A stretch of DNA of 64,000 nt from Anaerolineae bacterium (GTDB lineage Bacteria > Chloroflexota > Anaerolineae > Aggregatilineales > UBA3940), in NCBI GenBank assembly GCA_034435035.1, contig DAOTXW010000040.1:83144-147143 (forward strand), read 5' to 3'. The position numbers and the translations under genes are program-made. Below the pieces are notes generated by a model. That model worked only from the letters and a program-made list of their open reading frames with translations. It was not told the origin of the DNA and did no database searches. Position 1 is the first letter of the stretch. Each line of letters opens with the position of its first letter. Below are positions 11,484 to 32,900 of the stretch, one piece after another.

Positions 11484-11510
11484 TCGAAGGCCCTGCTTTG
11501 CCCGGTGAGA

Positions 11511-12401
11511 CTACCCACCAGGGCGGCGGAAGATCTGAAGCAGCGGGATGCGGGCCAGCAGCGGCGAATCGGCCACATCGTTCGGCCCCTGAGGCGCAAA
11601 CACCATCGTGTAGGGGTGTGTGAAGTCGATCGTCAGCGGGGCGCCATCGGATGGGTGGCGCCCCAGATCGGCGGGGCGAAGATGTGCATGGGGCGTAGGG
11701 GCAAGCCGATTATGCGCACCGCTTGCCAGCACGGTGAAATCCACAGGCGTCCATTGATCGCCCACATAGACGCCCAGAACCGTGTAGTAGGGCGTCCCAC
11801 TCATGAAGCCCGCGCGCCAGTCACTGTTGGCCCGGTGATAGACGGTGGGATCCTGGTAGTACATACCGAAAACCGCGACACGCTCACGAGGCACGCCGAG
11901 CATCAGCAGCAGGGTGGCGGCACTGAAACTGGCCGTCATGTGGTGTGGAAAGACCAGAGAGTCCCACGCCCGATGAATTTCGGCAACTGCGGCGAAGGCC
12001 ACCGGGGGCACGGTGGCGCCATGCTTCTGGCTGAGCGCCTCGGCCACGCGGCTGATCACGTCTCTGGCCCGTGTGCGTGCCTCGGGATGGGCAAGACTCG
12101 CCAGCCGGTGAATACGCCGCACGGCGTCCCAGATGTGCTGGTCGTTGTCGATCCGGCGCGGGCGGCCGGTATAGCTTTCGCCAAAGGCAGCGCGCGCCGC
12201 CAGATGCATGGCGGTAGTCGGCTCCCAGACATGGTAGTACAGCCCTGCTTCGTCCTCGACCGGCCAGTGTGCGACGACATAAGCATAGCGGTCGTCTGCG
12301 GGCCTCACCAGTACGGGGAAGTCAAGCTCTACCAGCCCTTTGGCGTGCAAATAGGCAACTCGACCGGTGTGAAGCGTCTGTTCGAGGAATCGGCGTGCCA
12401 T
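11511..12401 (-). CDS. Hypothetical protein, possibly a degenerate transglutaminase-like fold
   Basis: Long ORF; ATG at 12401 follows GAGGGA. The segment AATLLLMLGVPRERVAVF...YTVLGVYVGDQWTPVDFT resembles a transglutaminase-like core. Confidence 0.7.
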   Translation of the reverse strand: MARRFLEQTLHTGRVAYLHAKGLVELDFPVLVRPADDRYAYVVAHWPVEDEAGLYYHVWEPTTAMHLAARAAFGESYTGRPRRIDNDQHIWDAVRRIHRLASLAHPEARTRARDVISRVAEALSQKHGATVPPVAFAAVAEIHRAWDSLVFPHHMTASFSAATLLLMLGVPRERVAVFGMYYQDPTVYHRANSDWRAGFMSGTPYYTVLGVYVGDQWTPVDFTVLASGAHNRLAPTPHAHLRPADLGRHPSDGAPLTIDFTHPYTMVFAPQGPNDVADSPLLARIPLLQIFRRPGG

Positions 12402-12523
12402 GCAGGTTTCCCTCGGTGGCTTAATGCAGGTGCACGATTGGGTTCGCTGGTAGAGTGATGCTGCCCTCAATTGTATAGCAACCCTGGCGCCGGGAGAAAA
12501 GCGGCATGCAGGGGCCTGTCTAT

Positions 12524-14950
12524 TCAGGGAGCGCCGTATAGTGTGCGGTACATAGCGTAGTGCTCGTAGATGCGCTCGACATAGGTGCGCGGCTCGCTCA
12601 GGCTGATGGACTCAACGAACAGATCCGGGTCCCCGGCAGAAGCCTCAACCCAACTGGCGGTGCTTCCGGGCCCGGCATTGTAGGCGGTCAGGGCGGCAAA
12701 TGGGTCCTGGTCGAAGCGGTCAAGCTCATCACGGAGCAGCCAGGTGCCGAACGCCACGCTGACCACAGGGCGCTGCAGGTCAGAGGGCTGGTAGCCCGGC
12801 CAGCTCAGGCGAGCGGCAATGTCCTCCCCGGTGGGCGGCCATATCTGCATCAGACCTTGCGCCGACGCTGAAGATACGGCGAAACCCTCGAAGAGGCTTT
12901 CCTGCCAGATCAGCGCGTACACCCACAGCGGATCAAGCCCGTACCGCTCTGAGTCGGCGATCACCAGATCGGAGAAGTAGGTCGGGTAATACAGGCGTGC
13001 CAGAAAAGGCGGCGCTTCCAGGGAGGTGACGTCAGCCAGCTGCATCACACGACCGGCTGCCAGCAGCGATGAGCGGTAGAGGCCCATATCGCGGTAGAAG
13101 ATTGCCAGCTGATACAGGGCCAGCGGATCGTCCTGATGGTCGCGGCGCAACGCCTCCAGCTGGCTGCGGGCTTCCGCGGTCTGCCCCAGTTCCCACAGTT
13201 CGCGCCCGCGCAGCATCCGGTTATCGGTGGCGAGATCGGCGCGCAGGCTTTCGGCCAATGGAGGCTGCTCTGAAAGCGCGAATGTCTGTACGAGCCATGC
13301 TTCAGCTTCTTCGCGGCCCTCGTCCAGATCGGTAGGGAGCAGGAAGCCGGCGGGAGGGGCAAAGGGCTCGGTGCCATTGATCTGATCGCGCGCCCTGAGG
13401 GCGTAGAAGCGTGTGCCATCGGCGGTAAGAGCGCTGTTGAAGGCGACAGCGGCCTGCTCGCTGTTGCCAGCTGCCTGCAGAATCCTGCCAAGCCAGTAGT
13501 AGCTGGCGGCGGGGCGTTCATTCGCCGGCTGGGCTGCTGCCGTGTTCAGCAGCGTTTGCGCGGTCTCCATATCCCCGGCGCGATAGCTGTCCAGGGCGGC
13601 CTGGAATAGCAGTCGTGCCCCCCGGGCGTCTGTCGGGTATTCTGTGGCCAGCCGTTGGCCGTAAGCAGCCATGCGGGCCGTATCCCCGAGCGATTCCGCC
13701 AAGAGAGCAGCTGCAGAGAGCGCATCGGGCGCCTGAGCCAGCTCCGGATTTTCGGCAACAAAGGCATCATATGCGGCAAAAGCGAGGTCTATGCTGCCTG
13801 CGGCGGCGTAAGCATCGGCCAGCTCCAGATGGGCATCGGCCCATGCCTCACCGTCTTCGAGTCCGAAGCGCCGGATCATGCCCTGCAGCTCGCTGATTGC
13901 AGCCTGGACATTCCCCAGCTGCCGGTAGGAGCGTGCGATGAAAAGATGTACATCAGGCGGGTAGTCAATCGGTGTGCTGGCAAGATAGTTGTAGAATGCC
14001 TCCAGGGCGATGTCATACTGGCCCTGATTGTAGTTCACCAGGCCTCGCTGAAACTGATCAACCGGGTATCCGGCCTCCAGCAGGGCGCGCAGGGCGCTGA
14101 GAGCCTCGAAGCTCTCCGGATAGGCCATGAACACGAGGGTAAGCTGCTCGTAGCCAGCCTCAACCTGGCCTGCTTCCAGATACGTCTGCCCGATGGCGAA
14201 CTCAATGCTGGCGCGGTAGGGTGCATTGTCGGCTACCGCCAGGATTGCCTGATACTGACCGATCGCCAGATCGGTGCTTCTCAGAGAACGGAAGATGGCG
14301 GCGACTTTCTCCCGCAGCTGCAGGTGGCTTACTATATCGCGCTCTGCCAAAATGGCCTGATCATAGGCAGTCAGAGCGGCCTCAGTTTGGCCCAGCGCCA
14401 GGTTGGCGTCAGCAATGCGCTCGTATACAAAGCTGTCAATGAGGCCCGGCCGCAGGCTCAGGTAGGTCTGGTAATCCGTGATGGCGCCAGCCCAATCCGC
14501 CAGGCCCAGCTTCGCTTCACCGCGCAGGAAATATGCCTGAGCGGCCTTCGGATGATCGGGGAACTGGGCCAGCAGAGCGTCCAGAGCGGCGCGGGCTGAG
14601 CCGAAGTCCCCTCGCCGGAGCGAGGCCAGGGCCAGGCCAAGATAAGCGCGCACCGATTCGTCAGGCGAGGTTGCAGCACTGGCAACGATAACCTCAAATG
14701 TCTCCATAGCTGCATCCCAGTCTCCATTCGACAGGCTGCGCTCAGCTGCCGCCAGTATCTCCGCCGGGATCGGGGTGGAGGTAGGGGGCACGGTCGGAGT
14801 AGGGGTCACTGCAGGAGCGGCCAGGGAAGGAGGAATGCGGGTGGCAAGCGGGATGGGAAGACCGGATCCTGCTCCGTCGCAAGCTGCCAGAGCCAGGCTC
14901 ACAGCCAGTGCTGCGACGGAATGCAGCGTCACGTCCTGAAGTCGGTTCAT
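12524..14950 (-). CDS. Lipoprotein with TPR repeats and a C-terminal SLT lytic transglycosylase domain
   Basis: Lipobox LALAAC after the start at 14950, a TPTPT linker and many TPR helices. SLT motifs: WQESLF (catalytic Glu), AQGLMQI, AYNAGPG, EPRTYV. Confidence 0.92.
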   Translation of the reverse strand: MNRLQDVTLHSVAALAVSLALAACDGAGSGLPIPLATRIPPSLAAPAVTPTPTVPPTSTPIPAEILAAAERSLSNGDWDAAMETFEVIVASAATSPDESVRAYLGLALASLRRGDFGSARAALDALLAQFPDHPKAAQAYFLRGEAKLGLADWAGAITDYQTYLSLRPGLIDSFVYERIADANLALGQTEAALTAYDQAILAERDIVSHLQLREKVAAIFRSLRSTDLAIGQYQAILAVADNAPYRASIEFAIGQTYLEAGQVEAGYEQLTLVFMAYPESFEALSALRALLEAGYPVDQFQRGLVNYNQGQYDIALEAFYNYLASTPIDYPPDVHLFIARSYRQLGNVQAAISELQGMIRRFGLEDGEAWADAHLELADAYAAAGSIDLAFAAYDAFVAENPELAQAPDALSAAALLAESLGDTARMAAYGQRLATEYPTDARGARLLFQAALDSYRAGDMETAQTLLNTAAAQPANERPAASYYWLGRILQAAGNSEQAAVAFNSALTADGTRFYALRARDQINGTEPFAPPAGFLLPTDLDEGREEAEAWLVQTFALSEQPPLAESLRADLATDNRMLRGRELWELGQTAEARSQLEALRRDHQDDPLALYQLAIFYRDMGLYRSSLLAAGRVMQLADVTSLEAPPFLARLYYPTYFSDLVIADSERYGLDPLWVYALIWQESLFEGFAVSSASAQGLMQIWPPTGEDIAARLSWPGYQPSDLQRPVVSVAFGTWLLRDELDRFDQDPFAALTAYNAGPGSTASWVEASAGDPDLFVESISLSEPRTYVERIYEHYAMYRTLYGAP

Positions 14951-16799: not shown

Positions 16800-18332
16800 A
16801 TGACACGATCGCACATGTTCGACAACCATCCAACCCGCTTCCGCCAGCCCCTCATGAGCAGACAGCCTCTTTCATGGGGGCTGGCTGTGCTGGGAGGAAT
16901 GCTCCTCCTCTCGGCGTGCCAGCGTGAGGGGCTGCAGCCTCTCTCCGCGCCGACAGACTCCGGGCTGGCCGGCGGTGGGGCGGATGTATCTCTGGCGGCT
17001 GCCACGCCGCAGCCTATTCTGCCCGATGCCAGTCCGACCCCGGCCAATGCCGTGGGGGCAGTGCTTGCCGAGCAGACGATCGCCCTCAATGCGGCGGACA
17101 ACGCGCCTGTGGCTCTACCCTTCACCGGCAGTACGGGCCAGGTGATCCGCGTGGACCTGGCGCTGAGCCCCCCTGACGCTGAGTGTGATCTGCGAGTCAT
17201 CGATAAGTTTGGCAGTGTGCTTGCCGAGGCATCTGGCCGTGCGGGGCAGCCTCCTCCTCAGGTGGCCGAGCTGGCCCTGCCCTATGACGGCACCTACCGA
17301 GTCGAGGCAGCCGTGCTGTCCGGCCAGGCATCGGCAACCGTCCGCGTCAGCCAGGGCGGCCCTGCCAGCGGAGGTGGCTCATATGGAGGGCTTCCCATCT
17401 ATGCTTCGGCCCGGCTTTCCAGCGCAGGCGTCTACCACGTATACCAGTTCGATCTGGCGGTCGGACGGACGGTCACCCTTTCTGCGGTCTCAGCAGATGC
17501 ATCGCCTGGCGTGCTGGACCTGCGGCTGTTTGGGCCGGATGGTCGGCTCTCGGCCCACAGCACCGAAGGAATGGTGAGCGGATATGTCGCTGCCGAGTCG
17601 GGCATACACACGGCCCTGATCGGACTCACTCGCCCGGGCAGCGTTCCTTACGTGTTCAAGGTGGTGCAGGATGATGTTCCGCCAACGCCGGTTGGCCCGG
17701 CGGATGTGGTGCTGAACCAGACGTACCCGGTTTCGCTCGTTGAGGGAAGCAACCTGATCGTCGCGTTCGATGGATCCCGTGGCGAGACGCTGCGGATTGC
17801 GGTTTTCGATATGCCGCGCGATCTCGGTGTCGATCTGTACCTGCGCAGCCCGTTTGATCAGACGATTGCGTTTGCCACAGGTACCCCTGCAGAGCAGGAG
17901 ACAGCTATTCGCGAGATACAGCTCCCCTATACAGGGCAGTATCACCTTGAGATGCGCCCGCGCGGGTCCGGCACAGCCGCGTTTGCGTTGACACGCCTGC
18001 CGGCTGAAGCCTTGACCGGCGGCGGTTATTTCGGCGAGGCGGCGACAGGCCGGCGTTCCGGTGCTTTTACATCGGGTCAGATCTATCATGTCTATCAGTT
18101 TTTGCTCACCCGCCCGGCGGCAGTCAGCCTGACTCTCACTTCCGGGCCGCGGTTAGACGCAGTGATGGTACTCCTCTCCCCGGATGGCAGGCAGATCGCG
18201 CTTCGAGCTACAGACAACCGGGGTGATGCGCAGCTGGAAGAAAACCTCCGGCAGACGGGAACCTACACCGTGATGGTCTATTCCCCTTCAGGCGCAACAG
18301 GAGCCTATGAGTTTGCCTATCTTCGCCGCTGA
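16800..18332 (+). CDS. Lipoprotein with repeated PPC-like (pre-peptidase C-terminal) beta domains
   Basis: Lipobox LLLSAC; repeats of the type FxGxxGQxIRV...DLRVID.FG..LA...LPYDGTYRV. Start may be 16815 or 16854. Confidence 0.75.
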   Translation: MTRSHMFDNHPTRFRQPLMSRQPLSWGLAVLGGMLLLSACQREGLQPLSAPTDSGLAGGGADVSLAAATPQPILPDASPTPANAVGAVLAEQTIALNAADNAPVALPFTGSTGQVIRVDLALSPPDAECDLRVIDKFGSVLAEASGRAGQPPPQVAELALPYDGTYRVEAAVLSGQASATVRVSQGGPASGGGSYGGLPIYASARLSSAGVYHVYQFDLAVGRTVTLSAVSADASPGVLDLRLFGPDGRLSAHSTEGMVSGYVAAESGIHTALIGLTRPGSVPYVFKVVQDDVPPTPVGPADVVLNQTYPVSLVEGSNLIVAFDGSRGETLRIAVFDMPRDLGVDLYLRSPFDQTIAFATGTPAEQETAIREIQLPYTGQYHLEMRPRGSGTAAFALTRLPAEALTGGGYFGEAATGRRSGAFTSGQIYHVYQFLLTRPAAVSLTLTSGPRLDAVMVLLSPDGRQIALRATDNRGDAQLEENLRQTGTYTVMVYSPSGATGAYEFAYLRR

Positions 18333-18360
18333 GGCGCAGCCCCGAAAGGGGGTGCACCGT

Positions 18361-19866
18361 GTGCGGGCTGCAGCCCGGGCGCTTTGCTGGGTGGCGTTGA
18401 TGGCCGGCTGCCGGCCAGTGCAGGGCGCTCAGCCTGCGCCAACACCGGGGACTACTGCTACTCCGTGGCCGACGCTGGCTCCAATGGCGCCCGTTCCGGG
18501 GGAGGGAGGGCAAGCTCCCACCCCCCTGCCGGGCCCGCAGCTTCGCGACAAGTTCCGAGTCGAGGTTGTGACCGGCGTATCCGCTGTCTTCCCGCTTGAA
18601 GGGCGGATCGAACAACCGGTACGTATTGAGGCACTGGTCCTGAGCGGCGACTTAGATCCTGTCATCATCATCACTACAAGTGACGGGGATCGGCTGGCTT
18701 CGGTGAATGGCGGAGGGCCCGGGCAGCCGGAGGTCATCGGCGAGTTCCAGTTCCCCGGGACGGGCTACTACGAGCTGGGGCTGGCAGCCAGTAGCGGTGC
18801 GGGCGAGCTTGGGGTCTCGATCTACAACCTTGATCCGGCGGCGATCGAAGGTGGCGGCGTTTTTTCTTCGATTGAGGAGATCCTGCATGGGAGTATGGAC
18901 CAGCCAGCCAGTTATCACATTTATCGGCTGACGCTGGAGCGCGGCCATCGCATTGATCTGGCAGCCACCGCTATGACCGACGGCCTGGATCTGGTGATGG
19001 AGCTCTACGGGCCTGACGGGGCACTGAAGGAATCGCGCGATGACAATGTAGGCAAGGATCCACGCCTGTGGAACTACATGCCCAGTCAGACCGGGACCTA
19101 CATTGTCGTGCTGAGCAACTTTGATCAGAATACAGGTGACTATGAGCTGGCGGTGAGCCCTTCGGTATCTGGTGGCGAAGCCGCGATCGGCTCACGGGCG
19201 GAGGTTCAGCTGGAAGGCTCGCCCCGGCGCAGCACCTGGTTCACCTTCCCCGGTCGGGCACTGGACGCTGTCAGGATCGAGGCGCGCACTGCATCACCGG
19301 GTGTGGATATATGGCTGTCGGTCACGGATCCGTATGGCAACCGGCTGGCATCTGCTGATCTGAACGGGCCGGGTGGTACGGAGACACTTTCACTGGTACA
19401 ACTGCCGTTCGATGGCGCCTATCAGGTCGAGTTCCAGACGCTCGCCGAAAGCGGTCCCGTCGAGTATCTCATCACCACGACACGGGCAGCCGATCTTGAT
19501 CTGGGAGGGCGGATCGCGCCGAGCAACTTTGCGCGCACCGGCGCTTTTGATGCGCCCGGCACGGTGCTTTCGTACACATTTGATGCCAGCGCGGGTGATC
19601 TGATAGCTGTCAGCGCCCGCCCGACCGTGGCTGGAAGCGATCTGGATATGGGTTTCTACCTGTATGCGCCAGATGGATCCCGGCTGGCGAGTCACGATGA
19701 TGACGTGGGCAAAAACCCGGTGGCTGATGGCATTGAGCTGCCTTTGACAGGGCGATATGTCGTCTGCCTGTGGAATTATGGTGGCACACTCGGCCCATTT
19801 GAGGTGGTCATTGCCAACCCGGAAGCGCCCGTCGCACCCCCTGGCTCTCCGGGATCGACTCCATGA
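18361..19866 (+). CDS. Second PPC-repeat lipoprotein, paralog of the upstream gene
   Basis: GTG at 18361 follows AAAGGGGG; lipobox LMAGC; PTPGTTATPWPT linker; repeats LYxPDGxxLxxxDDxxGKxP...LPxTGxY. Confidence 0.78.
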   Translation: MRAAARALCWVALMAGCRPVQGAQPAPTPGTTATPWPTLAPMAPVPGEGGQAPTPLPGPQLRDKFRVEVVTGVSAVFPLEGRIEQPVRIEALVLSGDLDPVIIITTSDGDRLASVNGGGPGQPEVIGEFQFPGTGYYELGLAASSGAGELGVSIYNLDPAAIEGGGVFSSIEEILHGSMDQPASYHIYRLTLERGHRIDLAATAMTDGLDLVMELYGPDGALKESRDDNVGKDPRLWNYMPSQTGTYIVVLSNFDQNTGDYELAVSPSVSGGEAAIGSRAEVQLEGSPRRSTWFTFPGRALDAVRIEARTASPGVDIWLSVTDPYGNRLASADLNGPGGTETLSLVQLPFDGAYQVEFQTLAESGPVEYLITTTRAADLDLGGRIAPSNFARTGAFDAPGTVLSYTFDASAGDLIAVSARPTVAGSDLDMGFYLYAPDGSRLASHDDDVGKNPVADGIELPLTGRYVVCLWNYGGTLGPFEVVIANPEAPVAPPGSPGSTP

Positions 19867-19876
19867 TCCGCGCCTG

Positions 19877-19906
19877 AAAAAAGCAGCGGGGCGCAACGCC
19901 CCGCTG
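19877..19906 (-). terminator. Intrinsic terminator of rplY (possibly bidirectional)
   Basis: Perfect 10-bp stem cagcggggcg/cgccccgctg with a caa loop; A6 on the left gives a U-tract on the minus strand. Confidence 0.8.
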
Positions 19907-19933
19907 TGAAGACCAGGTAACAGATGGCTGCGA

Positions 19934-20584
19934 TTATTCCTCTTCTTCTTCGGCGCGCCGCTCGCGGATGACTTCTACAGCGTCCGCCGAGATCGGCTCG
20001 ACAAATAGGGCCTCTTCAACCTCGGCGGTCATCGGCTGATCGATCTTGAGGATCAATTCACCGGGGTCTGTTACGATGCGGACGCCCGCAGGAACGGGCA
20101 GATCGCTCACCAGGATGTGCTGTCCAACAGCAGTAAGCGTGCTTGCTTCCACCTGAATGCTGGGTGGCAGATCGGCCGGGAGCGCCTCCACCTCGACCGA
20201 GTTGGTGAGATGAATCAGGATGCCTTCGCGGCTTGCCACAACCGGAGATTCACCCACCACCACCACCGGCACCTCTGCGCGGATCAGCCGATCCATCGCC
20301 ACCCGGTAGAAATCGACATGCAGGATGTTACCTGCGATGGGGTCCCGCTGAACCTCGCGGGCGAGCGCCGGGATGGACTGGCTGCCCACCTGAAGTGCGA
20401 TCAGCTGCGTGCCACCCGCATGCGCCAGGACGGAGCGCAGGGCTTTATGATCAACCGTGAGGTTAATGGGCTCAGATTCGCGGCCATAGACAACAGCCGG
20501 GACCATACCCTGCCGGCGAAGCTGCTTGACTTTCTTGCCGACGATCTCGCGCGGACTTGCCTCAAGCGAGTATTTCTGGCTCAT
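19934..20584 (-). CDS. rplY: 50S ribosomal protein L25 / Ctc (long form)
   Basis: LEASPREIVGKKVKQLRRQGMVPAVVYG, EVQRDPI...HVDFY, EALPADLP, acidic tail. True ATG at 20584 follows GAGGAG. Confidence 0.95.
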   Translation of the reverse strand: MSQKYSLEASPREIVGKKVKQLRRQGMVPAVVYGRESEPINLTVDHKALRSVLAHAGGTQLIALQVGSQSIPALAREVQRDPIAGNILHVDFYRVAMDRLIRAEVPVVVVGESPVVASREGILIHLTNSVEVEALPADLPPSIQVEASTLTAVGQHILVSDLPVPAGVRIVTDPGELILKIDQPMTAEVEEALFVEPISADAVEVIRERRAEEEEE

Positions 20585-20737
20585 TCTTTCGTTCTCCTCT
20601 ACCACAGCCTTCGCCAGCGACGAGCTCCCATCAACGCCGGATCGTGGCTGGTTGCAGTTCAGCAAACAAAATGGGCGCCTCCACTCCGCCGCCAGCACTG
20701 CCGGGCAGCGAAGGGCCGGGAACGCCCCGCGGCACAT

Positions 20738-20766
20738 ATTGTACCGGGCGCAGGATACAGCGTCAA
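20738..20766 (-). promoter_or_regulatory. Sigma70-type promoter of rplY
   Basis: TTGACG, 17 nt, TACAAT on the minus strand. Confidence 0.75.
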
Positions 20767-20808
20767 TAGCGGGCGGCCCCGGCTTATACCTGAAGGGCCG
20801 CCGCCCGG

Positions 20809-21375
20809 TCAGGACTCGGACGCGGCCACGTAGCGGTCAATGAGATCGGGCGTGAGGGGGCCGAGATGCTCAGCGCGAACGATCCCCCGGGAGTCCAGAA
20901 TCACCGTGGTGGGGAATACCCGTATTCCGTACAGTGCAATGATGGAGCCGTCCGGATCGAGCGCCGCCGGGAACGTGAGTCCAAGCTCCTGCATATAGGC
21001 CGATACCACCTCAGGCTGTTCGCCTGCGTTCACTGCCACCACGTTGATCTGGCCCGCAGCAAAGGCCTGCTGAAGGGCCGGCATCTCCACGCGGCAGGGG
21101 CCGCACCAGGTCGCCCAGAAGTTGACGGCTACCGGCGTATCACGGTACAGAGAGCTGAGACGGATCACACCGCCGGCCTGGGTGCTGGCGCTGAAGTCCG
21201 GCGCGGGTTCTCCCACAATCACACGGTCGGGGATGGCGGTTGGCAACGCCGTCTGCCCCGGCGCCGGGGCGGAGCGGGGGCCGGCGCTCAACACAGCCAG
21301 CGCCATGACTGCGCCGGCGGCGATCCCTCCCAGCAGTAGAATGACCGGTGCGCGGCTGTCAGTCCGACCCGACAC
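20809..21375 (-). CDS. Membrane-anchored TlpA/ResA-like thiol-disulfide oxidoreductase
   Basis: APDF, VNFWATWCGPCRVEMP, VVAVNAGE, VFPTT; N-terminal TM. GTG at 21375 with AAGGA preferred over ATG 21405. Confidence 0.92.
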   Translation of the reverse strand: MSGRTDSRAPVILLLGGIAAGAVMALAVLSAGPRSAPAPGQTALPTAIPDRVIVGEPAPDFSASTQAGGVIRLSSLYRDTPVAVNFWATWCGPCRVEMPALQQAFAAGQINVVAVNAGEQPEVVSAYMQELGLTFPAALDPDGSIIALYGIRVFPTTVILDSRGIVRAEHLGPLTPDLIDRYVAASES

Positions 21376-21388
21376 GGGGTGCTTTCCT

Positions 21389-21416
21389 TCATTAGCTGAT
21401 GACATTAGCTGATGAC
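21389..21416. repeat. 13-bp tandem direct repeat of a near-palindromic unit
   Basis: cattagctgatga occurs at 21390-21402 and again at 21403-21415. Confidence 0.85.
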
Positions 21417-21423
21417 GTTACCA

Positions 21424-22779
21424 TCAGGGTATCCACTGCCCACTAAAGCCATTGCCTGTCACACGCTGCAGAGTCTCTGAAGACATATCATACATCCATA
21501 GCTCGGGGGTGCTGTGGGGCTGCTCCAGATTGAAGCGCTGGATCAGGATCTGATCCCCTGATGGGCTCCAGGTGAAGGCGGTGTTGTTGTAGATCGGATC
21601 CTCTGTGATGGCTCGTATCTCGCCTGTGTCGGGGTTCAGCAGGGTAAGCTGGCTGGCCCAGCCGGTCTGACGATCCAGACGACGGCGCCCAAAGGCAATC
21701 CACTTGCCCTGCGGGGACCAGGCGGCAGCCTGATCCTCTTCAGCTTGCTCCAGCAGCGGCCGTAGCCCTGCGCCGTCCCCTTCCAGCAGCGCCAACCAGA
21801 GCTCTGCGAAATACTGGCGCCCGACCGGGCGGATATCTGTGTAGACCATGCTGGTGCTGTCTGGCGAGAAGCTTCCCACTTCGCCCATCTGGCTCGGGAT
21901 CAGGATAGCATCCCCGCCGGACAGTGGCAGCACGCGAATGGCCTGTGAATTGGCATCAAAGAAGGCCAGCCATTGGCCATCCGGGCTCCATACCGGGGTG
22001 AATCCCAGCACCTGGTTGTCCTCAAAGACGGGGCCGGTCTGACCCGTTGCCACGTCATAAAGCCACACGCGGCTGGGCCCTGGCACTCCGGTGGCGGCGG
22101 CATCCTGACGCTCATAAGCCAGCAGGCGGCCATCCGGCGACCAGGCTGGCGTGCTGCAGATGCCTGGCCAGCAGTCGGTCAGCGCCTGTGCATTACCGCC
22201 CTGCGCATCGATGATCCAGATCTCAGAGGTCAGGTCCTGATTGAAGACAGTCACCGCGATCTGCGTGCCATCCGGGCTGGGCGCGAAGTTATACACACCA
22301 AACTCGGGGGCGAATATCTGCCGGGCATCGCCCTCGCCGGGGGCGATGCGCCACAGGCTGCGCTGCGGCGAATCCGCCGGGGCGAGGTACAGGATGGCAG
22401 GCTCGCGCGGGGTGAACGACCAGCGAATAGCGCGGGGGTTTGTGCGCCCATCGAGGCTGGACGCCCCCGATTCGAGCGTCACCGTGTAGACCCTGCCCGG
22501 CTGCAGGGCGGCTGTCGGGGTGAATGAGACGACGCTGCCATCAACACGCAGCTCGCCATCTACAACCGGCTCGATCCGCAGCCTCGTTTCTATGCTTGAA
22601 GGTTCCATCGGGCGGGCAAACTCAAGACGAATCTGGGTAGTGGACGGGGGGCGGCTGCCATCGGCAGGCGTCATGGCGATTAGGGGCACGCCTACATGAT
22701 CACCCAGGGCAACCACTCCCGCGATGGCTGCCAGCAGGCCGATGATGATCCCTGCGATGAGGCGATCGAAGCGATCCAT
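21424..22779 (-). CDS. Membrane-anchored protein with an Ig-like (SbsA/Big_5) domain and a TolB-like PD40 beta-propeller
   Basis: N-terminal TM; IRLEFARPM...FTP...LQPGRVYTVTL; repeats SPDGTQIA, WSPDGRLLAY, WSPDGQWLAF, WSPQGKWIAF, WSPSGDQIL. Confidence 0.85.
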   Translation of the reverse strand: MDRFDRLIAGIIIGLLAAIAGVVALGDHVGVPLIAMTPADGSRPPSTTQIRLEFARPMEPSSIETRLRIEPVVDGELRVDGSVVSFTPTAALQPGRVYTVTLESGASSLDGRTNPRAIRWSFTPREPAILYLAPADSPQRSLWRIAPGEGDARQIFAPEFGVYNFAPSPDGTQIAVTVFNQDLTSEIWIIDAQGGNAQALTDCWPGICSTPAWSPDGRLLAYERQDAAATGVPGPSRVWLYDVATGQTGPVFEDNQVLGFTPVWSPDGQWLAFFDANSQAIRVLPLSGGDAILIPSQMGEVGSFSPDSTSMVYTDIRPVGRQYFAELWLALLEGDGAGLRPLLEQAEEDQAAAWSPQGKWIAFGRRRLDRQTGWASQLTLLNPDTGEIRAITEDPIYNNTAFTWSPSGDQILIQRFNLEQPHSTPELWMYDMSSETLQRVTGNGFSGQWIP

Positions 22780-22786
22780 GGGGCGC

Positions 22787-23563
22787 TCAGGGGTAGAGAT
22801 AGGGCTGCTCAGGGGGCTGTACCGGCGTGATCTCCGAGGCCATTAAGACGGGCACGGCGCTTCCATCCACGATGCCGGCCTCAAAAGTGCCTCTCACCCG
22901 CACCCATGTGTCAGCCGGATAATTCGCTGGCTCCTCGGTCTGGACGACAACGCCGATAGCCAGCGCATCGGCCACACAGCAGGTCAGCGTGAACCGTCCT
23001 ACCATGAACTGCTCTGCATCGAAGCGGGCATCCCGGTAGACAAACCCGACGATGTCGGCTTCCTGGCCGTCCAGGGCTGCTGGATCAGGATCCTCGTTCA
23101 TGACGCGGACCCAGTCCAGGATATTGCGCTCGGAGGGGACCACGGTGAGGCGGCTGCCCTGATCGGCTGCGCCGGCCACATCGGTGGTGATGCCACGATT
23201 AGCGATCGCATTCGCGCCCAGAGGCCGTGCCGGGATGGTGATTCCCAGAATCAGCGGGAAGGCGACAATCACCAATGGCCAGGCCGACACGGTCTCATTA
23301 TGGGGATCGTGTCGGTGTCCGTGCGAGGGGGCATGGTCGGGGGGGATGTGCTGCGCGTCATCTCGGTCACTGATCAGCTTGTAGGAGCCTGCCAGCAGGA
23401 TCAACAGCCCGACTCCGACCACAGACAGCCAGCCGAAACGAGGGCCAATGTAGTAGTACAGCTTGCCGCTGACGAATTTCTCGGCCAGAAACATTGCGAG
23501 CAGGATCAACAGCAGCGCCTTGAGACGATTCGCAGAGTGGACGGTCAGCCGCATGCGCCTCAC
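22787..23563 (-). CDS. TIGR03943/DUF1980 (YcgQ-like) putative permease partner
   Basis: [11 protein letters not shown], His-rich [41 protein letters not shown]. Its GTG overlaps the stop of the upstream permease (GTGA). Confidence 0.85.
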
Positions 23564-24486
23564 CAGGGGACATTAAGATTGATGAACACACCGGTCAGCA
23601 GCGTGAGCAGGAATGGCAGCACCATCAAATAGACCACGATCCGACGTTCAAAGACGCCCAGGAACATCAGCGTGCTCTTGATGTCGATCATCGGGCCAAA
23701 CACCAGGAAGCTGAGGATGGAGCCGGTTGTGAACGTTCCGGCAAATGCCAGGGACAGGAACGCATCAACCGTTGAGCACACGGACAAAAGGAACGCCAGC
23801 CCCTGCATGACCAGGACCGATCCCACCGGCCCCGATCCGACGGACAGCAGAACAGCCTGCGGCACCAGAGTCTGAAGCATCGCTGCCAGTGCCGAGCCGA
23901 TGATCAGGTAGCGCGCCATTTCAAAGAACTCATCTGCCGCGACCTGCAGCGCGCGCTGCAGTCGATCGCGCACCGGCATGATCGGGCGCAGCGGGATCAC
24001 TTCGTCGCTGGCGGCCACAGGCGTCATTGGGGCATGTTGGCGCATCAGCCGCGCTGGCTGGGGGTGGAGCGAGAAAACCAGGCCAATGCCGGCAGCAATC
24101 AGGAATCCCAGCCCAAAGCGAGCGAACAGGATGGGCCTCCAGCCATACGCAGCATAGGTGCTGGCGACCACGACCGGATTGATGATAGGGGCTGAGAGCA
24201 GAAAGGCTATACCTGCCGATGCCGGTAAGCCCTTGTTGAGCAGCCGGCGGGTGAGCGGCACGACGCCGCATTCGCAGACCGGAAACGCGAGCCCCAGGAG
24301 TCCGCCGATCAGCACCGCCCGACCAGGCCTGCCCGGGATGAGCCTGAGCATGTCCTCGCGGCTGATGAACTCCTCCACCAGCCCTGAGGCAAGCGTGCCC
24401 AGCAGCAGAAAAGGGATGGCCTCAATCAGGATGCCCAGAAAGACGGTGGTGAAAGTAATGACCTGATCGATCACAGTGCCCCGCAC
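23560..24486 (-). CDS. DUF318/COG0701 (YcgR/ArsP-like) predicted permease
   Basis: [54 protein letters not shown]. Confidence 0.9.
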
Positions 24487-24538
24487 ATGGCCGGCGGAAT
24501 ACCCGTGATCTTACCACGGCCTTTCCAGGTTGCCAGTT

Positions 24539-24624
24539 TCAGCAGACCACAATGGATATCGATGGCAAACCAGAGACCGATGCGCGAAGTTCATCCGCGG
24601 CGTGGTTTCATTGTGGTCTGCTGA
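24539..24624. repeat. Perfect 16-bp inverted repeat (86-bp hairpin- or MITE-like element)
   Basis: tcagcagaccacaatg (24539-24554) and cattgtggtctgctga (24609-24624) are exact reverse complements, with a 54-nt spacer. Confidence 0.9.
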
Positions 24625-24663
24625 GCGTCAATTAGTGGTGACCTGCCCTTTAGAAGTGCCGGA

Positions 24664-25686
24664 TCACTCCCCAAGACCTATCACCAGCTGTGCGGCATTG
24701 GCCCGCATCATGTCCACATAGGTTTCGGCGCCGCTGCCCGGCGCTCCCAGCGAGTCAGTGTACAGGGTAAGTACACGGATATCCGGCCCGAGTTCGGCAG
24801 CAATCGTACCGGCAAGCTCTGCATCGATCGTTGTCTCAACGAAGATGGCCCTGATCCCCTCTGCACGTAGTACATCAATTAGCTGAGCCATCTGACCGGC
24901 CGATGGCTCGGCTACCTCGGCGGCCCCGATGTAGATCGTGTCCACCACCTCAAACCCATAGGCTCGAGCGAAGTACGCCAACGCATCATGGTTGGTCACC
25001 AGCCGACGGTGTTCCGGTGGGATTCGTGCCACCTGTTCGCGGATGTGAGCATCAAGACTCTCCAGCTCTCTCCGATAGGCCGCCGCATTGGCGCGATAGC
25101 TGGTAGCCCCGTCGGGATCGAGAGCCGCCAGGGTTTCGGCCACGTTGGCTACCCAGATCATCACATTGCGCGGATCCTGCCAGGTATGGGGATCTCCATA
25201 CTCATGGGTGTGATCCAGATCCCCGCCCTCCTCGCTCTGATGGTCTTCATCCTCAACGGGGAAGATAATGTCCACACCAGCGGATACCGGTACGACAGCG
25301 GGGCTGCCGCCCAGCATATCCAGGACCGGCTCGAGGCCTTCCTCGAAGTGAAGCCCGTTGACGTACAGCACGTCCGCTTCGCGCAGTAAGGCGAGGTCCG
25401 ATGCGCTGGGCTCGTAGCTGTGTGGGTCCTGCCCGGAGGGTATCAGCACTTCCAGATGGATGCGATCGCTGCCGACGTTGGCGACCACATCGCCGATGAT
25501 ACTGGTGGTGGCCACGACTTGCAGCGGATCGCCTGCGGGGCGCTCTGCCGGGGAGAGCGTCGGGAGCGCCAGTTCCGTGTCCCTCTCTTCGACGAGAGGC
25601 TGGGGAAGCACGGGCTGCGACAGCCCCCCACAGGCGGCCAGGGTAAGTCCCAGGATTACGGGCAGGCAAGTAACAGTCAGGCGCAT
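24664..25686 (-). CDS. Metal (Zn/Mn) ABC-type substrate-binding lipoprotein, ZnuA/TroA family
   Basis: Lipobox LTLAAC; VVATTSIIGD, GQDPHSYEP, NGLHFE, His/acidic loop EDEDHQSEEGGDLDHTHE, DPHTWQDP, HDALAYF, IFVET, YTDSLG. Confidence 0.93.
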   Translation of the reverse strand: MRLTVTCLPVILGLTLAACGGLSQPVLPQPLVEERDTELALPTLSPAERPAGDPLQVVATTSIIGDVVANVGSDRIHLEVLIPSGQDPHSYEPSASDLALLREADVLYVNGLHFEEGLEPVLDMLGGSPAVVPVSAGVDIIFPVEDEDHQSEEGGDLDHTHEYGDPHTWQDPRNVMIWVANVAETLAALDPDGATSYRANAAAYRRELESLDAHIREQVARIPPEHRRLVTNHDALAYFARAYGFEVVDTIYIGAAEVAEPSAGQMAQLIDVLRAEGIRAIFVETTIDAELAGTIAAELGPDIRVLTLYTDSLGAPGSGAETYVDMMRANAAQLVIGLGE

Positions 25687-25701
25687 TCGGGGGCTCCTTA
25701 A

Positions 25702-25751
25702 TGAGATGAAGTATCAATTAGTATTCTATCGTGTGCCTGGCCGCCTGTCAA
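25702..25751 (-). promoter_or_regulatory. Sigma70 promoter of the SBP gene with a Fur-family (probably Zur) box at the transcription start
   Basis: Minus strand: TTGACA (25751-25746), 17 nt, TAGAAT (25728-25723). tgagatgaagtatca (25702-25716) matches 10 of 14 positions of the 7-1-7 TGATAATnATTATCA motif. Confidence 0.65.
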
Positions 25752-25879
25752 ATGGTGTCAGCCGCAGGACCAATCGACCTATTCCGACTTGACCCTCGCC
25801 TATTGACCGTACTACACTTAAGCACAAGCAGGGGGGGACCCCGCCCTGAACTGATCAGCGCCGGGCGGCGCCGGCACCC

Positions 25880-27430
25880 ATGGAGGATCCACTCATGCGT
25901 CAAGATCAAGGACTGAGGAACGCAGTGGTATTCGCAGTTGTTGTGCTGGCAGCGCTTGTCATGACCGGCCCGCCAGCACCCGCGGCGGCTGCAGGCGAAG
26001 AGGGGGTATGGCTGGCCGAATACTATGCTAACCGCGAGCTCTCGGGGCCGATCATTTTTTCAGAGACGTTGCCCGGGCCGTTTCTGATCAAAGAATGGCC
26101 ATGGGGGGAAGGCCCCAAGAATGGCGTACCGGATGACAAGTGGTCGGCCCGCTTCACTACCCACGCGACATTCCCGGGGGGGAACGTCAAGTTTTTGCTG
26201 AACTCGGATGATGGCTCACGGCTGTACCTCAATGGCGAAGTCATACTTGACGAATGGCATGAACGCGCCGCAACCTGGTATGCAGCCCGTGTGCTGCCTG
26301 TCCCCGCAGGCACCTACACGATCATGGTCGAATACTATGACACGGGCGGCATCAACAAGATAGAAGCGCTCTGGCAGGCAACCACTGATCTGCCCGCCGC
26401 GCCGGATGCCAATTTTGTGCCGGCGGGTACCGGGCAGGGCGGGGGCGGCCTGCCGACCGGGATACCGGTTGACATGTGGCGGGCGGACTACTACTCGAAC
26501 CGCGATCTGGAAGGGGCAATCACCTTCTCCGAGGTTCTGCCCGGCCCCTACCTGGAACGCGATTGGCTGTGGGGTTTTGGGCCACAGAATGGCGTGCCCG
26601 ATGATGAATGGTCGGCCCGCTTCACAACCCGGCATGTGTTCCCCGGAGGCAATGTCAAGTTTTTCATCAATTCGGACGATGGATCGCGGATGCTGTTAAA
26701 CGGTCAGGTGATCATCGACGAATGGCACGATCGTGCTGCCACCTGGTATACGGCGCGCGTCCTGCCGATTCCAGCCGGAATGTACGAGATCACGGTGGAG
26801 TACTACGAAGCATTCGGGATCAACAAAGTGTCAGCGGGGTTTGAACCGACAACCGATCTGCCGGCTGCGCCTGATGCGGGCTTTGTGCCGGCGCCCTTGC
26901 CCCCGGACCAACAGCCAGCCGCGCCAACTGGCCAGCCTGGCACGTCACCTGCGGGCGGGCAGGCAGAGGGCGGCCCGACTCTGGCCACCCCGCCCCCGGG
27001 CGGCATAGTCGTCGATGCCAATACACCTGCCTTTGCCTGGGCGGGATCAAACGAGTGGGGCTATGGCTTCGGCGGCCTGCTGGACAATCTCTACCTGTTT
27101 GTGGGCAATAGCGCTTTTGCGCCTCGCCTGTGGGCGCGCTGGAACCCATCGCTCCCCAGCGCTGGCTACTATGACATCTATGTCTGGATCCCGGCCAACC
27201 CGGCAGCTACAACCAATGCTCGCTACCGGGTGTTTCACAGCGGCACGCTGAGCCCTGTGATCGCGGTGAACCAGCGTGAGAATGGCGGTCAGTGGGTCTG
27301 GATCGGCAACTTCTACTTCGCACCCGGCGCAAGCCAGTACCTGTATCTCAATGACCTGACGTTCGAGTCGGCGGATTCTACCTGGGTGCTGTTTGATGCC
27401 GTGAAGTTCGTTTACAGCGACACCCAGTAG
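25880..27430 (+). CDS. Secreted protein with two PA14 domains and a C-terminal golvesin/Xly-CBD-like domain
   Basis: Signal peptide; two copies of W.A.YY.NR.L.G...WSARFTT...FxxNSDDGSR..LNG.VI.DEWH...VEYY. C-terminus WARWNPSLPSAGYYDIYVWIP...NARYRV...QWVWIG.F.F...FDAVKF. Confidence 0.85.
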   Translation: MEDPLMRQDQGLRNAVVFAVVVLAALVMTGPPAPAAAAGEEGVWLAEYYANRELSGPIIFSETLPGPFLIKEWPWGEGPKNGVPDDKWSARFTTHATFPGGNVKFLLNSDDGSRLYLNGEVILDEWHERAATWYAARVLPVPAGTYTIMVEYYDTGGINKIEALWQATTDLPAAPDANFVPAGTGQGGGGLPTGIPVDMWRADYYSNRDLEGAITFSEVLPGPYLERDWLWGFGPQNGVPDDEWSARFTTRHVFPGGNVKFFINSDDGSRMLLNGQVIIDEWHDRAATWYTARVLPIPAGMYEITVEYYEAFGINKVSAGFEPTTDLPAAPDAGFVPAPLPPDQQPAAPTGQPGTSPAGGQAEGGPTLATPPPGGIVVDANTPAFAWAGSNEWGYGFGGLLDNLYLFVGNSAFAPRLWARWNPSLPSAGYYDIYVWIPANPAATTNARYRVFHSGTLSPVIAVNQRENGGQWVWIGNFYFAPGASQYLYLNDLTFESADSTWVLFDAVKFVYSDTQ

Positions 27431-29978: not shown

Positions 29979-32900
29979 CTATTCAGCCGGTGAGCCGGCC
30001 GTATCCAGTTCATAAACCTGCACTAACCCGTTGGCCGTATCCACCACGTAAAGGCTGCTGTCTGTAGCCAGCACGGATCCGGCGAGGCCGATCGTTGTGT
30101 AATCGCCAAAGCTGTAAAGGTAGTCCCCTGCTGAGTTGAAGACAATTATCCGGTAGGCCTCGGGATCGGTTACGTACACATTGCCGCTGGCATCCACCTC
30201 GATGTACGGCCGCTCGTTGGTCTGGGCGAACCAGGCATCAACATACCACTGGCGCAGGTAGCGACCTTCCGGATCGAAGACCTGGATGCGCTGATTCCAG
30301 GTATCTGCCACGTAGATCGATCCATCCGGCCCTATCGCCAGCCCAACCGGCTCATCCAGCTCGCCCTCCTGCCCGCCTCCCGTGCCGATCTGCCGGACAA
30401 AGAAGCTCTCCCGGTTGAAGACCACGATCCGTTTGTTGCCGGTGTCCGCGAGGTAGATCCTGCCCTCATTATCGGTAGTGATACCCCGGGGGCCCCAGAA
30501 CGCCAGTGGGTCTCCTACATTAGGGCCTTCAAAGCCCCAGTTGCGCACATACTGCCCCTGAGCTGAGTACTCCACAATCCGGTGGTTCCATGTATCGGCG
30601 ATGTAGATCGTGCCGTCCGGCCCCACTGTGACATCCCAGGGCTCATTGACGGCGTCGGGAGCCGGGGCAAGGCCGTATTTGCTGAGGCTGCGAACGAAGT
30701 TGCCCTGCTGATCAAAGACGACAATACGGTGGTTGCCACTGTCGGCAATGTAGATCAGACCATCTGGCCCCATGCTGATGCCATGCGGGCGAGCCAGCAT
30801 GCCAGCGCCAAATGTTCGAACCGGCACCATCTCCCGGACGCCCTCGGCGTAGGGATCGGTGGCCTGTGCGATCTCGCTAGCCGCTACGCCGTAATCCCAT
30901 ACCTGGGCAAAAACATCCTTGCGGATGTAGACGCGCATACGCTCCGATACAGGCCACCGGCTGAGGGAGAAGTCTGGGCGTGCGCCCCGGTAAAGTGAGA
31001 CGGCATCGGCGTATGTGCTGTAGTCCCGGCGGAAGAAGATGTCGCGGATTCCCCGCTGGAGCCCGGGATCGGTCAGCACATCAGCCAGCATAGCCCGCAT
31101 CCGGGGCCACTCCTCGTAGCCGAAGTAATCCTGCATCGGCCACCACATCCGGATGTACTCGAACTGGTAATACCGCCCTCCCAGGAGCGGTTCAACTTTC
31201 GCCCAGTTGCCGGGCCCGGCGAGGATCACGGGGGCGTCTCCGATCAGGCCGCGCGATGGCTGTTCGCCGTAGTACACGGCATTGTAGTAATTGCGCAGAT
31301 ACCATGAAAGCGGCCACGAAACCTGGTTGTCGTAAGCAACGCGAAGCCCATAACCATCGGTGGTCTTGAGGGAAATCTCCTCAATCTGGTCCATCACCTG
31401 CTTCACCGCCCCCGCCGAGTGCGCGTAAACCAGATACTCATTGGCCTGGTCGTAGTTCACGAACGAGGCGATCAATGCGGTGCGGGCAGTAAGGAAGGCC
31501 AGCCACACGACCAGCCACAGCGCTGTCAGCCTCCAGAGCTGGGCGATCGCCAGACGGCGGGCTGTTGTAAACAGAGCTGCCACGGTCGCCGCCAGTACAA
31601 TGACGGCAGCTAGCCAGGCATAAGTAGCATAGAGATCGCTGACCCGCACTCCCTTGAAGACTCCCTGCTGGAAGCGTTCGGGAATCACCGTCGTGCAGGG
31701 TAGCTTCAGCGCCCCCAGGAGGACCTCGCCCCAGCCATGTGCCCCCGGCGGCGCTATGCCAGCGGTGGCTTCCACCGCCAGCGGGGGGGGAGGAACGACA
31801 GCTGAGCAGATCGGCCCCGTCACACGTAGAAGGGACACCAGCAGAAGCGGCAGCAGCAGCAGAACCAGCCAGGTGCTACCCTGGACAATCCGCTTCCACT
31901 CGATGCTCTCCAGCAGGCGCCCGACCATCCATCCGCCCAGCAGGATGAAGGGCGCTGTCAGGTGAGTGGTGAGCCACGGCATCTTCTCGCCGGCGATGCT
32001 GTAGGCCACGATGTTCAGGACGCCCCAGTAGGCAGTGAACGCGAAGATCGGGAACGCGATGGGAGCCTGAAGGTCTATGAATAAGCGCTGCCCGGGCCCG
32101 GCAGCCGCAGCATCGTTGCGGCCATCGGATGGGGGCAGGGATGCGGGCCGCAGGGCTGAGCGCACCAGCCGGCCAAGCCCAAGCGCACCGGCTGCCGCCG
32201 ATAGTATCACCGGCAGGAACTCGTATATCGGCAGCATGATCATCAGGTAGTAGTACCAGGGCTGGTTGCCGCGCTTGACCCCCTGCTGCTCCAGCCAGTA
32301 CGCAAGCGACCCGATTACCCCGGTCCCGAGTCCTGCCCCGTTGGTAAACATGGTCGTAAAGAAGAAGAGGAAGAACAACCAGAAGACGGCGCCGATGGCC
32401 CACCAGCGGCTGGCAAGGGCTGCCTGTACCCAGTCGAGCAGGTCCGGCTCCACCTCGATCTCGATGTTGTCTGCGCCCTCCGGGATCGATACCTGCGCCA
32501 GTTCCTCGGCTGTGAGTGCGTTAACCGGGACGCGAATACGGCGCCTGATCGGCTTCTGCATCCCCCATGCCACGCCCACCCCGATGCTGATGAACAACAT
32601 GGGCAGCGTGAACAGCAGGCTTGTGGCAACACCCTGTGAGGTCTCATCCATCGGGTTAAATCCCGCAGCATGGATCAGGAAAGGCGTCAGCATGGGCAGG
32701 ATCAGGGACCCCAGAACAATCATCACATCGAGTTCGGGGAATTGACGCAGCTGCTTCCACTGGCCTACCAGCACAGAGCCTGCCATAACGACCAGCGAGA
32801 GCGCCGAAGCGCCCATCAGCGCGATCTGCACCGGATCTCGCTCCGCGGTGACCGGTGCGGCCTCGTCCGGCAGCCCGGCAGCCGGATCAACCGGCGCGGC

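Follow-up and report, generated by a model that had tools for sequence, protein, structure and literature searches.

We have analyzed a 64-kb stretch of DNA from an Anaerolineae bacterium (contig DAOTXW010000040.1; hereafter the window), where five neighbouring genes on the same strand code for a metal substrate-binding protein (SBP), a COG0701 permease, a TIGR03943 protein, a protein with an immunoglobulin (Ig)-like domain and a beta-propeller, and a TlpA-like thioredoxin-fold protein. Its closest homologues likewise place this DNA with the Anaerolineae-type Chloroflexota. The best explanation that we have found, with a probability of about 0.6, is that two functionally separate units were joined here by a lineage-specific rearrangement: the SBP of a split znu operon, and an operon for a permease of a thiol-loving metal. 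An earlier note on this DNA had proposed that the SBP delivers its metal to the permease pair and not to an ATP-binding cassette (ABC) transporter. What speaks against this proposal is a Zur-controlled znuCB operon lacking an SBP gene, located in what is very probably the same genome, together with the presence of SBP orthologues in SBP-ZnuC-ZnuB operons.

According to the explanation that we favour, znuA would have been transferred to the head of the permease operon together with its promoter, its Zur operator and its ribosome-binding site, and the genes for ZnuC and ZnuB would have stayed beside an aldehyde dehydrogenase gene under their own copy of the Zur box. Under zinc limitation Zur would release both promoters, and the lipoprotein may then capture Zn(II) by a His3-Asp site and dock on ZnuB2C2. 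The second unit (permease, TIGR03943, propeller and TlpA-like protein) would be an ancestral operon, kept without the SBP across Anaerolineae-type Chloroflexi. We infer that it is a cysteine-based transporter of a thiol-loving metal, most probably zinc, and the same applies to its topology, its direction and the role of the TlpA-like protein.

The zinc-type binding protein and a znuCB operon at a second locus

The SBP belongs to the cluster A-I metal-binding proteins (PF01297, 281 bits over a cutoff of 29). Its top NCBIfam match was AztC (NF040870), at 275 bits and under the equivalog cutoff of 350, and the closest solved structure in the PDB was also AztC, that of Paracoccus (5W56 and 5W57). 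In the alignment to 5W56 all four ligands are kept (DPH, DPHxW, xNHDA and YTDSL), i.e., a His-His-His-Asp set in which the third ligand is the His of zinc-type proteins and not the Glu of the Mn-type His2-Glu-Asp set. The acidic and His-rich loop that the earlier note had pointed out, PVEDEDHQSEEGGDLDHTHEYGDPH, is located ahead of the second His ligand, and a signal peptide is followed by the lipobox LAAC with Cys19. Judged by its sequence, the protein is a zinc-type cluster A-I lipoprotein (znuA/aztC-like); the four aligned AztC ligands and a strong Zur box bear out the zinc assignment of the note. Its nearest homologue (59.5% identity) is encoded in a SBP-ZnuC-ZnuB operon, at the locus that we call L068.

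Between positions 19800 and 26000 of the window, no promoter-like site is better than that of the SBP gene. Right behind the -10 hexamer of this promoter, and right ahead of the ribosome-binding site, is the palindrome CTAATTGATACTTCATCTCATTAAG. The name Zur box is given to this operator since fur-SBP-ZnuC-ZnuB operons are preceded by the same motif. A weight matrix was built from 29 sites, most of them directly 5' of SBP orthologues in metagenome contigs, with the consensus TTATTGATACnnnGTATCAATAA. The box of the window scored 30.2 bits and was the sole match of at least 12 bits in the 64 kb, and only eight matches of at least 18 bits appeared in 1.08 Mb of related loci. A Fur-family palindromic operator thus overlaps the promoter of the SBP gene, as expected for a member of the Zur regulon. 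Sites of a supposed 'type C' operator proved to be the same TGATAC-N3-GTATCA box. There is also a second flavour of the Zur box, TTGAAAAnnnTTTTCAA (L059:12810-12855), ahead of SBP or fur genes in the loci L059-L063, while the group of the window uses TGATACnnnGTATCA.

A search with the ZnuB of L068 detected a homologue, P0245, 80% identical and located on contig CAYVJV010000005.1 (297,358 bp; assembly GCA_964451875.1) as well as on a Logan contig of the sequencing run SRR10095374. The proteins of the window occur in SRR10095373, the sibling run. Among the top 120 ZnuB homologues there was none on a contig with the length of the window's own (307,082 bp). At this second locus, L155, the gene order is aldehyde dehydrogenase-ZnuC-ZnuB-glyoxalase, and neither an SBP gene nor a remnant of one was found there; at L068 the order is aldehyde dehydrogenase-SBP-ZnuC-ZnuB. 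The 125-nt gap before the znuC of L155 contains TTGACA...TATAAT followed by a Zur box, CTAATTGATACTGCATATCAGTTGA, of 24.3 bits, which has the 12-mer CTAATTGATACT in common with the box of the window. This layout of promoter and operator is the same in the SBP gene of the window, in the znuACB of L068 and in the znuCB of L155.

The tetranucleotide composition of the window and L155 correlated at 0.987, compared to 0.966-0.980 for 16-kb controls taken inside the window and 0.944 for the next best locus. The divergence from L068 was also coherent over both places, with identities of 62.5% for the aldehyde dehydrogenase, 77% for ZnuC, 80% for ZnuB and 59.5% for the SBP of the window. We consider it very probable that the window and L155 belong to the same genome. 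The SBP gene, an orphan locally, is then probably not an orphan at the level of the genome, and the most economical explanation is the splitting of an ancestral aldehyde dehydrogenase-P(Zur)-znuA-znuC-znuB operon. The earlier note had named a distant znuBC pair working with the SBP among the findings that would undo its proposal; L155 provides such a pair, if our placing of it in the same genome is right. The segments L155:7092-8849 and 9980-12890 contain the znuCB operon and, a few kb from it, a fur-feoB-feoA operon. The latter is preceded by a perfect palindrome of another sequence, TGAGAAACATTCTCA, which is probably this organism's Fur (iron) operator.

The SBP shares with ZnuABC and AztABCD systems the PF01297 fold, the His3-Asp site, the His/acidic loop, the lipoprotein signal and the Zur box overlapping the promoter, and the second locus supplies a matching ZnuC-ZnuB operon under the same operator. 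It differs from them in that the genes are split, with the SBP heading an unrelated permease operon and ZnuCB left without an SBP gene. Unlike AztC proper, it scores below the equivalog cutoff, and no AztD-type chaperone was identified, AztD itself not having been used as a query.

The relatives of the permease operon tell the same from the other side. We scanned species-representative genomes with a TIGR03943 alignment and obtained 65 loci, all from Chloroflexi. A ZnuA-type SBP is present at nine of them, six of which also have ZnuB, whereas the 11 closest relatives of the permease operon (55-65% identity) all lack it. In a second survey, covering 80 loci that encode homologues of the SBP, a COG0701 or TIGR03943 gene adjoined the SBP gene in none, and most of those with enough downstream DNA were SBP-ZnuC-ZnuB operons. 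The neighbourhood survey suggested in the earlier note hence showed that SBP, COG0701 and TIGR03943 genes are not conserved together (9/65, 0/11 and 0/80), another of the findings by which the note would have its proposal refuted. In the 11 closest relatives the order is PPC-PPC, L25 (on the opposite strand), permease-TIGR03943-propeller-TlpA, a MerR-like gene and PA14. Compared to these loci (L002-L012), the four-gene block of the window is inverted between L25 and PA14 and carries the SBP gene at its new upstream end, and the MerR-like gene found between TlpA and PA14 in L003, L005, L007, L008 and L012 is missing. Since the block is inverted and the closest relatives have no SBP, the adjacency of SBP and permease is derived and not ancestral.

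The permease operon and its metal-gene neighbours

The permease is a member of COG0701/ArsP_1 (PF03773, 229 bits over a cutoff of 32.3) with a CxC motif in its first repeat. The CEC and CS motifs noted before are real and correspond to residues 71-73 (CEC) and 237-239 (CST), each conserved in at least 90% of 54 orthologues, like the motif LSxCSTxDA. Against the model of the SO_0444 Cu/Zn efflux protein it scored 82 bits (cutoff 300) and against SaoE 70 bits (cutoff 325), being an equivalog of neither. The TIGR03943 protein (182 bits over a cutoff of 88.8) has both the N- and C-terminal DUF1980 domains and adjoins the permease, as is typical of its family. Its AlphaFold model (predicted local distance difference test, pLDDT, 82.6) has transmembrane (TM) helices at 8-32, 41-60 and 95-109, a disordered His-rich loop at 61-90 and a C-terminal five-stranded barrel at 168-247 with OB folds as the best Foldseek matches. 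At the end of the second barrel strand is a pair, C195-C196, invariant in 73 sequences. By the positive-inside rule the His-rich loop would be cytoplasmic, and the OB domain with its Cys-Cys is predicted to be extracytoplasmic. A sequence search of the PDB with this protein gave no relative of solved structure.

The next protein was modelled with pLDDT 95 as a TM helix (3-26), an Ig domain (33-122) and a propeller (128-450). The top Foldseek matches were TolB structures, with E about 1e-15. Like TolB it consists of an N-terminal domain followed by a PD40 beta-propeller, but its N-terminal domain has a Big_5 Ig fold and is carried by a TM anchor. It scored 73 bits against TIGR02800 (TolB; cutoff 343), no tol/pal genes are nearby, and we do not assign it to TolB. 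A further difference is the conserved Cys pair, CxxxxC, within the motif DCWPGIC, where C208 is invariant and C203 is at least 90% conserved; the pair is also kept in versions fused to NicO (see below). The idea that the propeller could be an AztD-type chaperone was abandoned, the sequence and fold searches giving TolB and S9-peptidase propellers; no AztD structure was among the top 50 Foldseek matches, no search with the AztD reference sequence having been made. The last protein has the membrane anchor, thioredoxin fold and CxxC of TlpA, ResA and CcmG, with a ResA-like model as the best NCBIfam match (NF002854, 98 bits, cutoff 170) and all equivalog and subfamily scores below cutoff. It differs from them in that its WCGPC is of the classical thioredoxin type and that no cytochrome-c maturation or Sco/PcuC genes are nearby.

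Among the Chloroflexi loci with enough flanking DNA, the permease gene adjoins TIGR03943 in 52 of 58 and the Ig/propeller gene adjoins the pair in 37 of 51, which makes it the most conserved partner of the pair in this phylum. The TlpA-like gene follows the Ig/propeller gene in 11/65 loci, mostly the closest ones. The conserved unit is the trio of COG0701 permease, TIGR03943 and Ig/TolB-like propeller. The pair itself is known from Firmicutes as YcgR/YcgQ in Bacillus subtilis, ScfA/ScfB in Streptococcus pyogenes and SMU.746/SMU.747 in S. mutans. These are the same two-gene unit with translational coupling, and belong to the same families (PF03773; TIGR03943 with PF09323 and PF21537). What the Chloroflexi version adds is the propeller with its CxxxxC, often a TlpA-like thioredoxin, and the recurrent proximity of Zur and ZnuABC genes.

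The trio was found beside Zur or Znu genes in eight distinct architectures. The window has SBP-trio-TlpA, and L017 has an SBP, not orthologous to that of the window, followed by the trio. In L036 fur-SBP and the permease gene point away from each other, and the region that they share contains a full Zur box of 27 bits, which serves the trio; in L042 fur-SBP-ZnuC-ZnuB is about 4 kb from the trio. L050 reads SBP-(insertion sequence fragment)-trio-[Zur box]-ZnuC-ZnuB-Fur; L054 has trio-Fur without Znu genes; L059 has trio-TlpA-SBP with two Zur-type boxes. Finally, in L060-L063 the trio is followed by an 834-aa NicO-PD40 fusion, Fur and then SBP-ZnuC-ZnuB. Weaker Zur-like palindromes (e.g., TGAGACTAGGTCTCA) were detected ahead of propeller-permease-TIGR03943 in L030, L032 and L033. 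A Fur-family gene was scored in nine of the 65 loci, eight times beside the trio or Znu genes. A ZnuA-type SBP is located within 10 kb of the pair in 9 of the 36 loci that have at least 6 kb on both sides; our own rough estimate of the chance expectation, assuming one or two such genes per genome of 4-5 Mb, is below 1%. This neighbourhood suggests that the trio has a role with zinc or another thiol-loving metal. The role of zinc that the earlier note gave to the Cys/His-rich pair is strengthened by this recurrent link to Zur and ZnuABC, and its idea of delivery by the SBP is not.

Two of these loci deserve a separate description. In L050 a DDE transposase fragment (L050:7236-8608) separates the SBP and permease genes, and without it the order would be SBP-trio-ZnuC-ZnuB-Fur, with the trio inside a znu operon. 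The fusion of L060 (L060:12076-14577; also in L061 and L063) has a NicO/NiCoT domain (PF03824, 44 bits) and a PD40 propeller, which keeps the motif DCxxxxCSxPxWSPDG of the Ig/propeller protein of the window. Outside the Chloroflexi, two permease-TIGR03943 pairs are found on the plasmid pBM400 of Priestia, flanked by a P-type ATPase with HMA proteins on one side and by CopC/YcnI on the other. On plasmid pI of Streptomyces mirabilis (L149:4416-7543), a YncE-family propeller gene directly precedes the permease and TIGR03943 genes, in a metal island that also codes for FetAB, ArsR/SmtB and a P-type ATPase. It is the second case, independent of the first, in which a propeller accompanies the permease pair. 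Other contexts in Firmicutes (Listeria, Clostridium and Pontibacillus) were uninformative.

From these features the working of the operon may be sketched as follows. The permease of the ArsP family would provide the pathway, by way of the CEC and CST.D motifs in its two repeats. The TIGR03943 protein would contribute a cytoplasmic His-rich loop and an extracytoplasmic OB-fold domain, whose Cys-Cys could serve to hand off the metal. The membrane-anchored propeller with its CxxxxC pair would act as the extracytoplasmic partner, and the WCGPC thioredoxin may keep the exposed thiols reduced; as the earlier note had supposed, a TlpA-type reductant would be a reasonable partner for cysteines in predicted extracytoplasmic domains.

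Layout of the cluster and the spacer

The coordinates of the features are collected in Table 1. The earlier description of the cluster was accurate throughout, from the five co-oriented genes to the GTGA that couples permease and TIGR03943 genes (a 4-nt overlap, 23560-23563), the Ig (Big_5) and PD40 gene 7 nt downstream of TIGR03943 and the CxxC oxidoreductase, whose gene follows after another 18 nt.

Table 1. Positions of the cluster, its regulatory sites and its downstream boundary in the window
Feature	Position	Strand	Details
Sigma-70-type promoter of SBP gene (TTGACA, 17 nt, TAGAAT)	25723-25751	minus	11/12 consensus positions
Zur box CTAATTGATACTTCATCTCATTAAG	25697-25721	minus	weight matrix 30.2 bits
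SBP gene	24664-25686	minus	340 aa; PF01297 ZnuA 281 bits
SBP-permease spacer, 177 nt	24487-24663	minus	inverted repeat, Zur-box half-site, weak extended -10
COG0701/ArsP_1 permease gene (YcgR/ScfA-like)	23560-24486	minus	308 aa; PF03773 229 bits
TIGR03943/DUF1980 putative permease subunit gene (YcgQ/ScfB-like)	22787-23563	minus	258 aa; TIGR03943 182 bits
Ig-like (Big_5) and TolB-like beta-propeller protein gene, membrane-anchored	21424-22779	minus	451 aa; Pfam Big_5 and PD40
TlpA/ResA-like thioredoxin-fold protein gene, membrane-anchored, WCGPC	20809-21405	minus	198 aa; AhpC-TSA 88 bits, Redoxin 75 bits
Promoter of the L25 gene	20738-20766	minus	10/12 consensus positions
Ribosomal protein L25/CTC gene, downstream boundary	19934-20737	minus	Pfam Ribosomal_L25p and TL5_C
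Terminator after the L25 gene	19884-19906	minus	10-bp stem, 9 GC pairs, then T6

The spacer between the SBP and permease genes contains a Zur-box half-site, ACTAATTGA (24628-24636), and no full operator, so that control of the permease operon by Zur would need read-through from the SBP promoter. The half-site occurs twice in the 64 kb, against 0.06 expected, the other copy being inside the Zur box itself. A weak extended -10 (TGGTAAGAT) is located at 24508-24516. The presence of TGGTAAGAT in L011 and of TATAAT-type -10 elements in L004-L006 at similar distances argues for an internal promoter at this place. There is also a perfect 15-bp inverted repeat, CAGCAGACCACAATG (24540-24554 and 24609-24623), with 54 nt between its arms. 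The RNA of the spacer folds at -73.7 kcal/mol (z = -3.25) and lacks a U-tract; the repeat may serve for attenuation, for RNA processing or for stabilisation. It was not taken for a dispersed repeat, as it is found only here in the window. A Rfam search of 19500-26500, aimed at a metal riboswitch, gave nothing near the gathering score, and the only good terminator-like site (a stem with a T-tract) in the cluster region is the one behind the L25 gene downstream. The spacer is not conserved in the upstream regions of the closest relatives, which have in common only the divergent L25 promoter.

The absence of ZnuB and ZnuC reported before was confirmed for the whole window: phmmer with the E. coli ZnuB detected no ABC-3 permease in its 64 kb. 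Its ABC ATPases are limited to two fusions of the exporter type (57283-61076) and the product of a LivF-like gene (63069-63782). There is no Fur-family gene in the window, and neither an efflux ATPase nor a metal-sensing derepressor. Pfam searches of the cluster gave no domains of TRAP or TTT systems (DctP or TctC binding proteins, DctQM or TctAB membrane proteins). On the L25 side (16800-19866) there are two paralogous secreted proteins in tandem, both about 510 aa long and with a pre-peptidase (PPC) domain at the C-terminus; the pair is kept beside L25 in the closest relatives. On the other side, the gene at 25880-27430 runs divergently to the SBP gene and codes for a secreted protein that combines two PA14 domains with a C-terminal Golvesin domain; it is a conserved flank marker in the relatives. 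Farther away there is a 1239-aa membrane protein with a PMT_2-type glycosyltransferase region and C-terminal NHL repeats (29979-33698).

Alternative explanations and meaning

Several points weigh against the explanation by two joined units. The placing of the window and L155 in one genome derives from composition, sibling runs and the pattern of contig sizes. In the window and at three other loci (L017, L036 and L059) the trio has a ZnuA-type SBP as a neighbour and no ZnuB within 10 kb. The SBPs of the window and L017 are non-orthologous, which implies that the juxtaposition arose repeatedly and independently; this exceeds simple chance and leaves room, at a small probability, for a direct link between SBP and trio. 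The 11 closest relatives have no recognisable Zur box ahead of the permease gene, which means that zinc regulation of the trio is not general. The phenotypes published for ScfAB and SMU.746/747 refer to acid stress, biofilm and in-vivo fitness or virulence, with no reported link to metals (PMC5584981, PMC12173739). Finally, the characterised members of the ArsP family are exporters: SO_0444 of Cu/Zn (PMC3219624), ArsP and SaoE (bioRxiv 10.1101/2022.07.06.499078). The literature that we searched on the TIGR03943, DUF1980, COG0701 and PF03773 families contained no functional assignment other than these phenotypes and exporter relatives.

These exporters give rise to an alternative that we regard as possible, if rather unlikely. 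The trio could be an efflux or metallation system of the ArsP family, exporting Zn, Cu(I) or Cd from the cytoplasm for detoxification or for loading extracytoplasmic proteins, with the OB Cys-Cys and the propeller receiving the metal outside and the SBP being unrelated. SO_0444 and SaoE are the closest named NCBIfam models of the permease, which shares with them the Pfam family and a CxC in the first repeat (CEC here, CSC in both of them), and the pairs on pBM400 and pI are near P-type ATPases. TlpA-type reductants are known in the maturation of copper chaperones. Nevertheless, the efflux equivalog scores are far under cutoff, and SO_0444, SaoE and ArsP act alone, while the permease of the window is obligately paired with TIGR03943. 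The Chloroflexi contexts are those of Zur-repressed uptake genes and not of efflux regulators of the ZntR, CzrA or SmtB type, and the window has no efflux ATPase or metal-sensing derepressor. In our analysis the Zur contexts favour uptake as the direction of transport, although the characterised relatives export.

A more ambitious version of uptake, which we advance as speculation and think doubtful, is that the trio with its dedicated extracytoplasmic thioredoxin constitutes a new Zur-linked three-component zinc-acquisition system of Chloroflexi, parallel to ZnuABC, that could take zinc from ZnuA-type lipoproteins.

Direct delivery in the window itself, as in the earlier note, appears improbable. 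The SBP would give zinc to the COG0701/TIGR03943 pair, perhaps via the OB domain or the propeller, making up an ATPase-less SBP-dependent importer with TlpA keeping the thiols reduced. The SBP gene does precede the permease gene directly, both being on the same strand, and no convincing terminator separates the two; the spacer has its half-site, the predicted extracytoplasmic OB domain carries the Cys-Cys, and the four loci without a nearby ZnuB, with their non-orthologous SBPs, fit the same idea. On the other hand, a Zur-box-controlled znuCB operon without an SBP gene exists in very probably the same genome, 56 of the 65 related loci (all the closest included) lack an SBP, ZnuCB accompanies it in six of the nine that have one, none of the 80 SBP homologues adjoins the pair, and the arrangement of the window is a derived inversion plus insertion. 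In TRAP and TTT transporters the co-occurrence with an SBP is obligatory, unlike here. To our knowledge, no cluster A-I SBP is known to serve a permease outside the ABC class.

We also give little credence to a permease operon without any metal function. Its permease would serve in envelope stress or acid tolerance, the role proposed for ScfAB and SMU.746/747, and its proximity to zinc genes would reflect genome organisation only: the phenotypes and variable gene contexts of the homologues in Firmicutes, and the roughly 55 of 65 Chloroflexi loci with no zinc genes within 10 kb, would agree with it, but the frequency of nearby SBPs (9/36 against less than 1% estimated), the eight architectures, the CxC metal motif, Cys-Cys and His-rich loop, and the same CxxxxC propeller fused to a NicO metal permease in L060-L063 do not.

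If a cluster A-I SBP had been at work here with no ABC transporter, this would have amounted to a new principle of transport; the evidence points instead to an ordinary split znuA/znuCB regulon. This analysis defines a Zur operator for Anaerolineae-type Chloroflexi, TTATTGATACnnnGTATCAATAA. It also shows that the YcgR/YcgQ-type pair of Chloroflexi has a conserved TolB-like partner that bears cysteines and is repeatedly associated with Zur/Znu genes, and these two features together are a testable functional lead. The ScfAB family is needed for the fitness of group A streptococci in tissue. If true, the zinc-acquisition reading would provide the first biochemical function for the YcgR/YcgQ (ScfAB) family, and would matter for streptococcal fitness in vivo.

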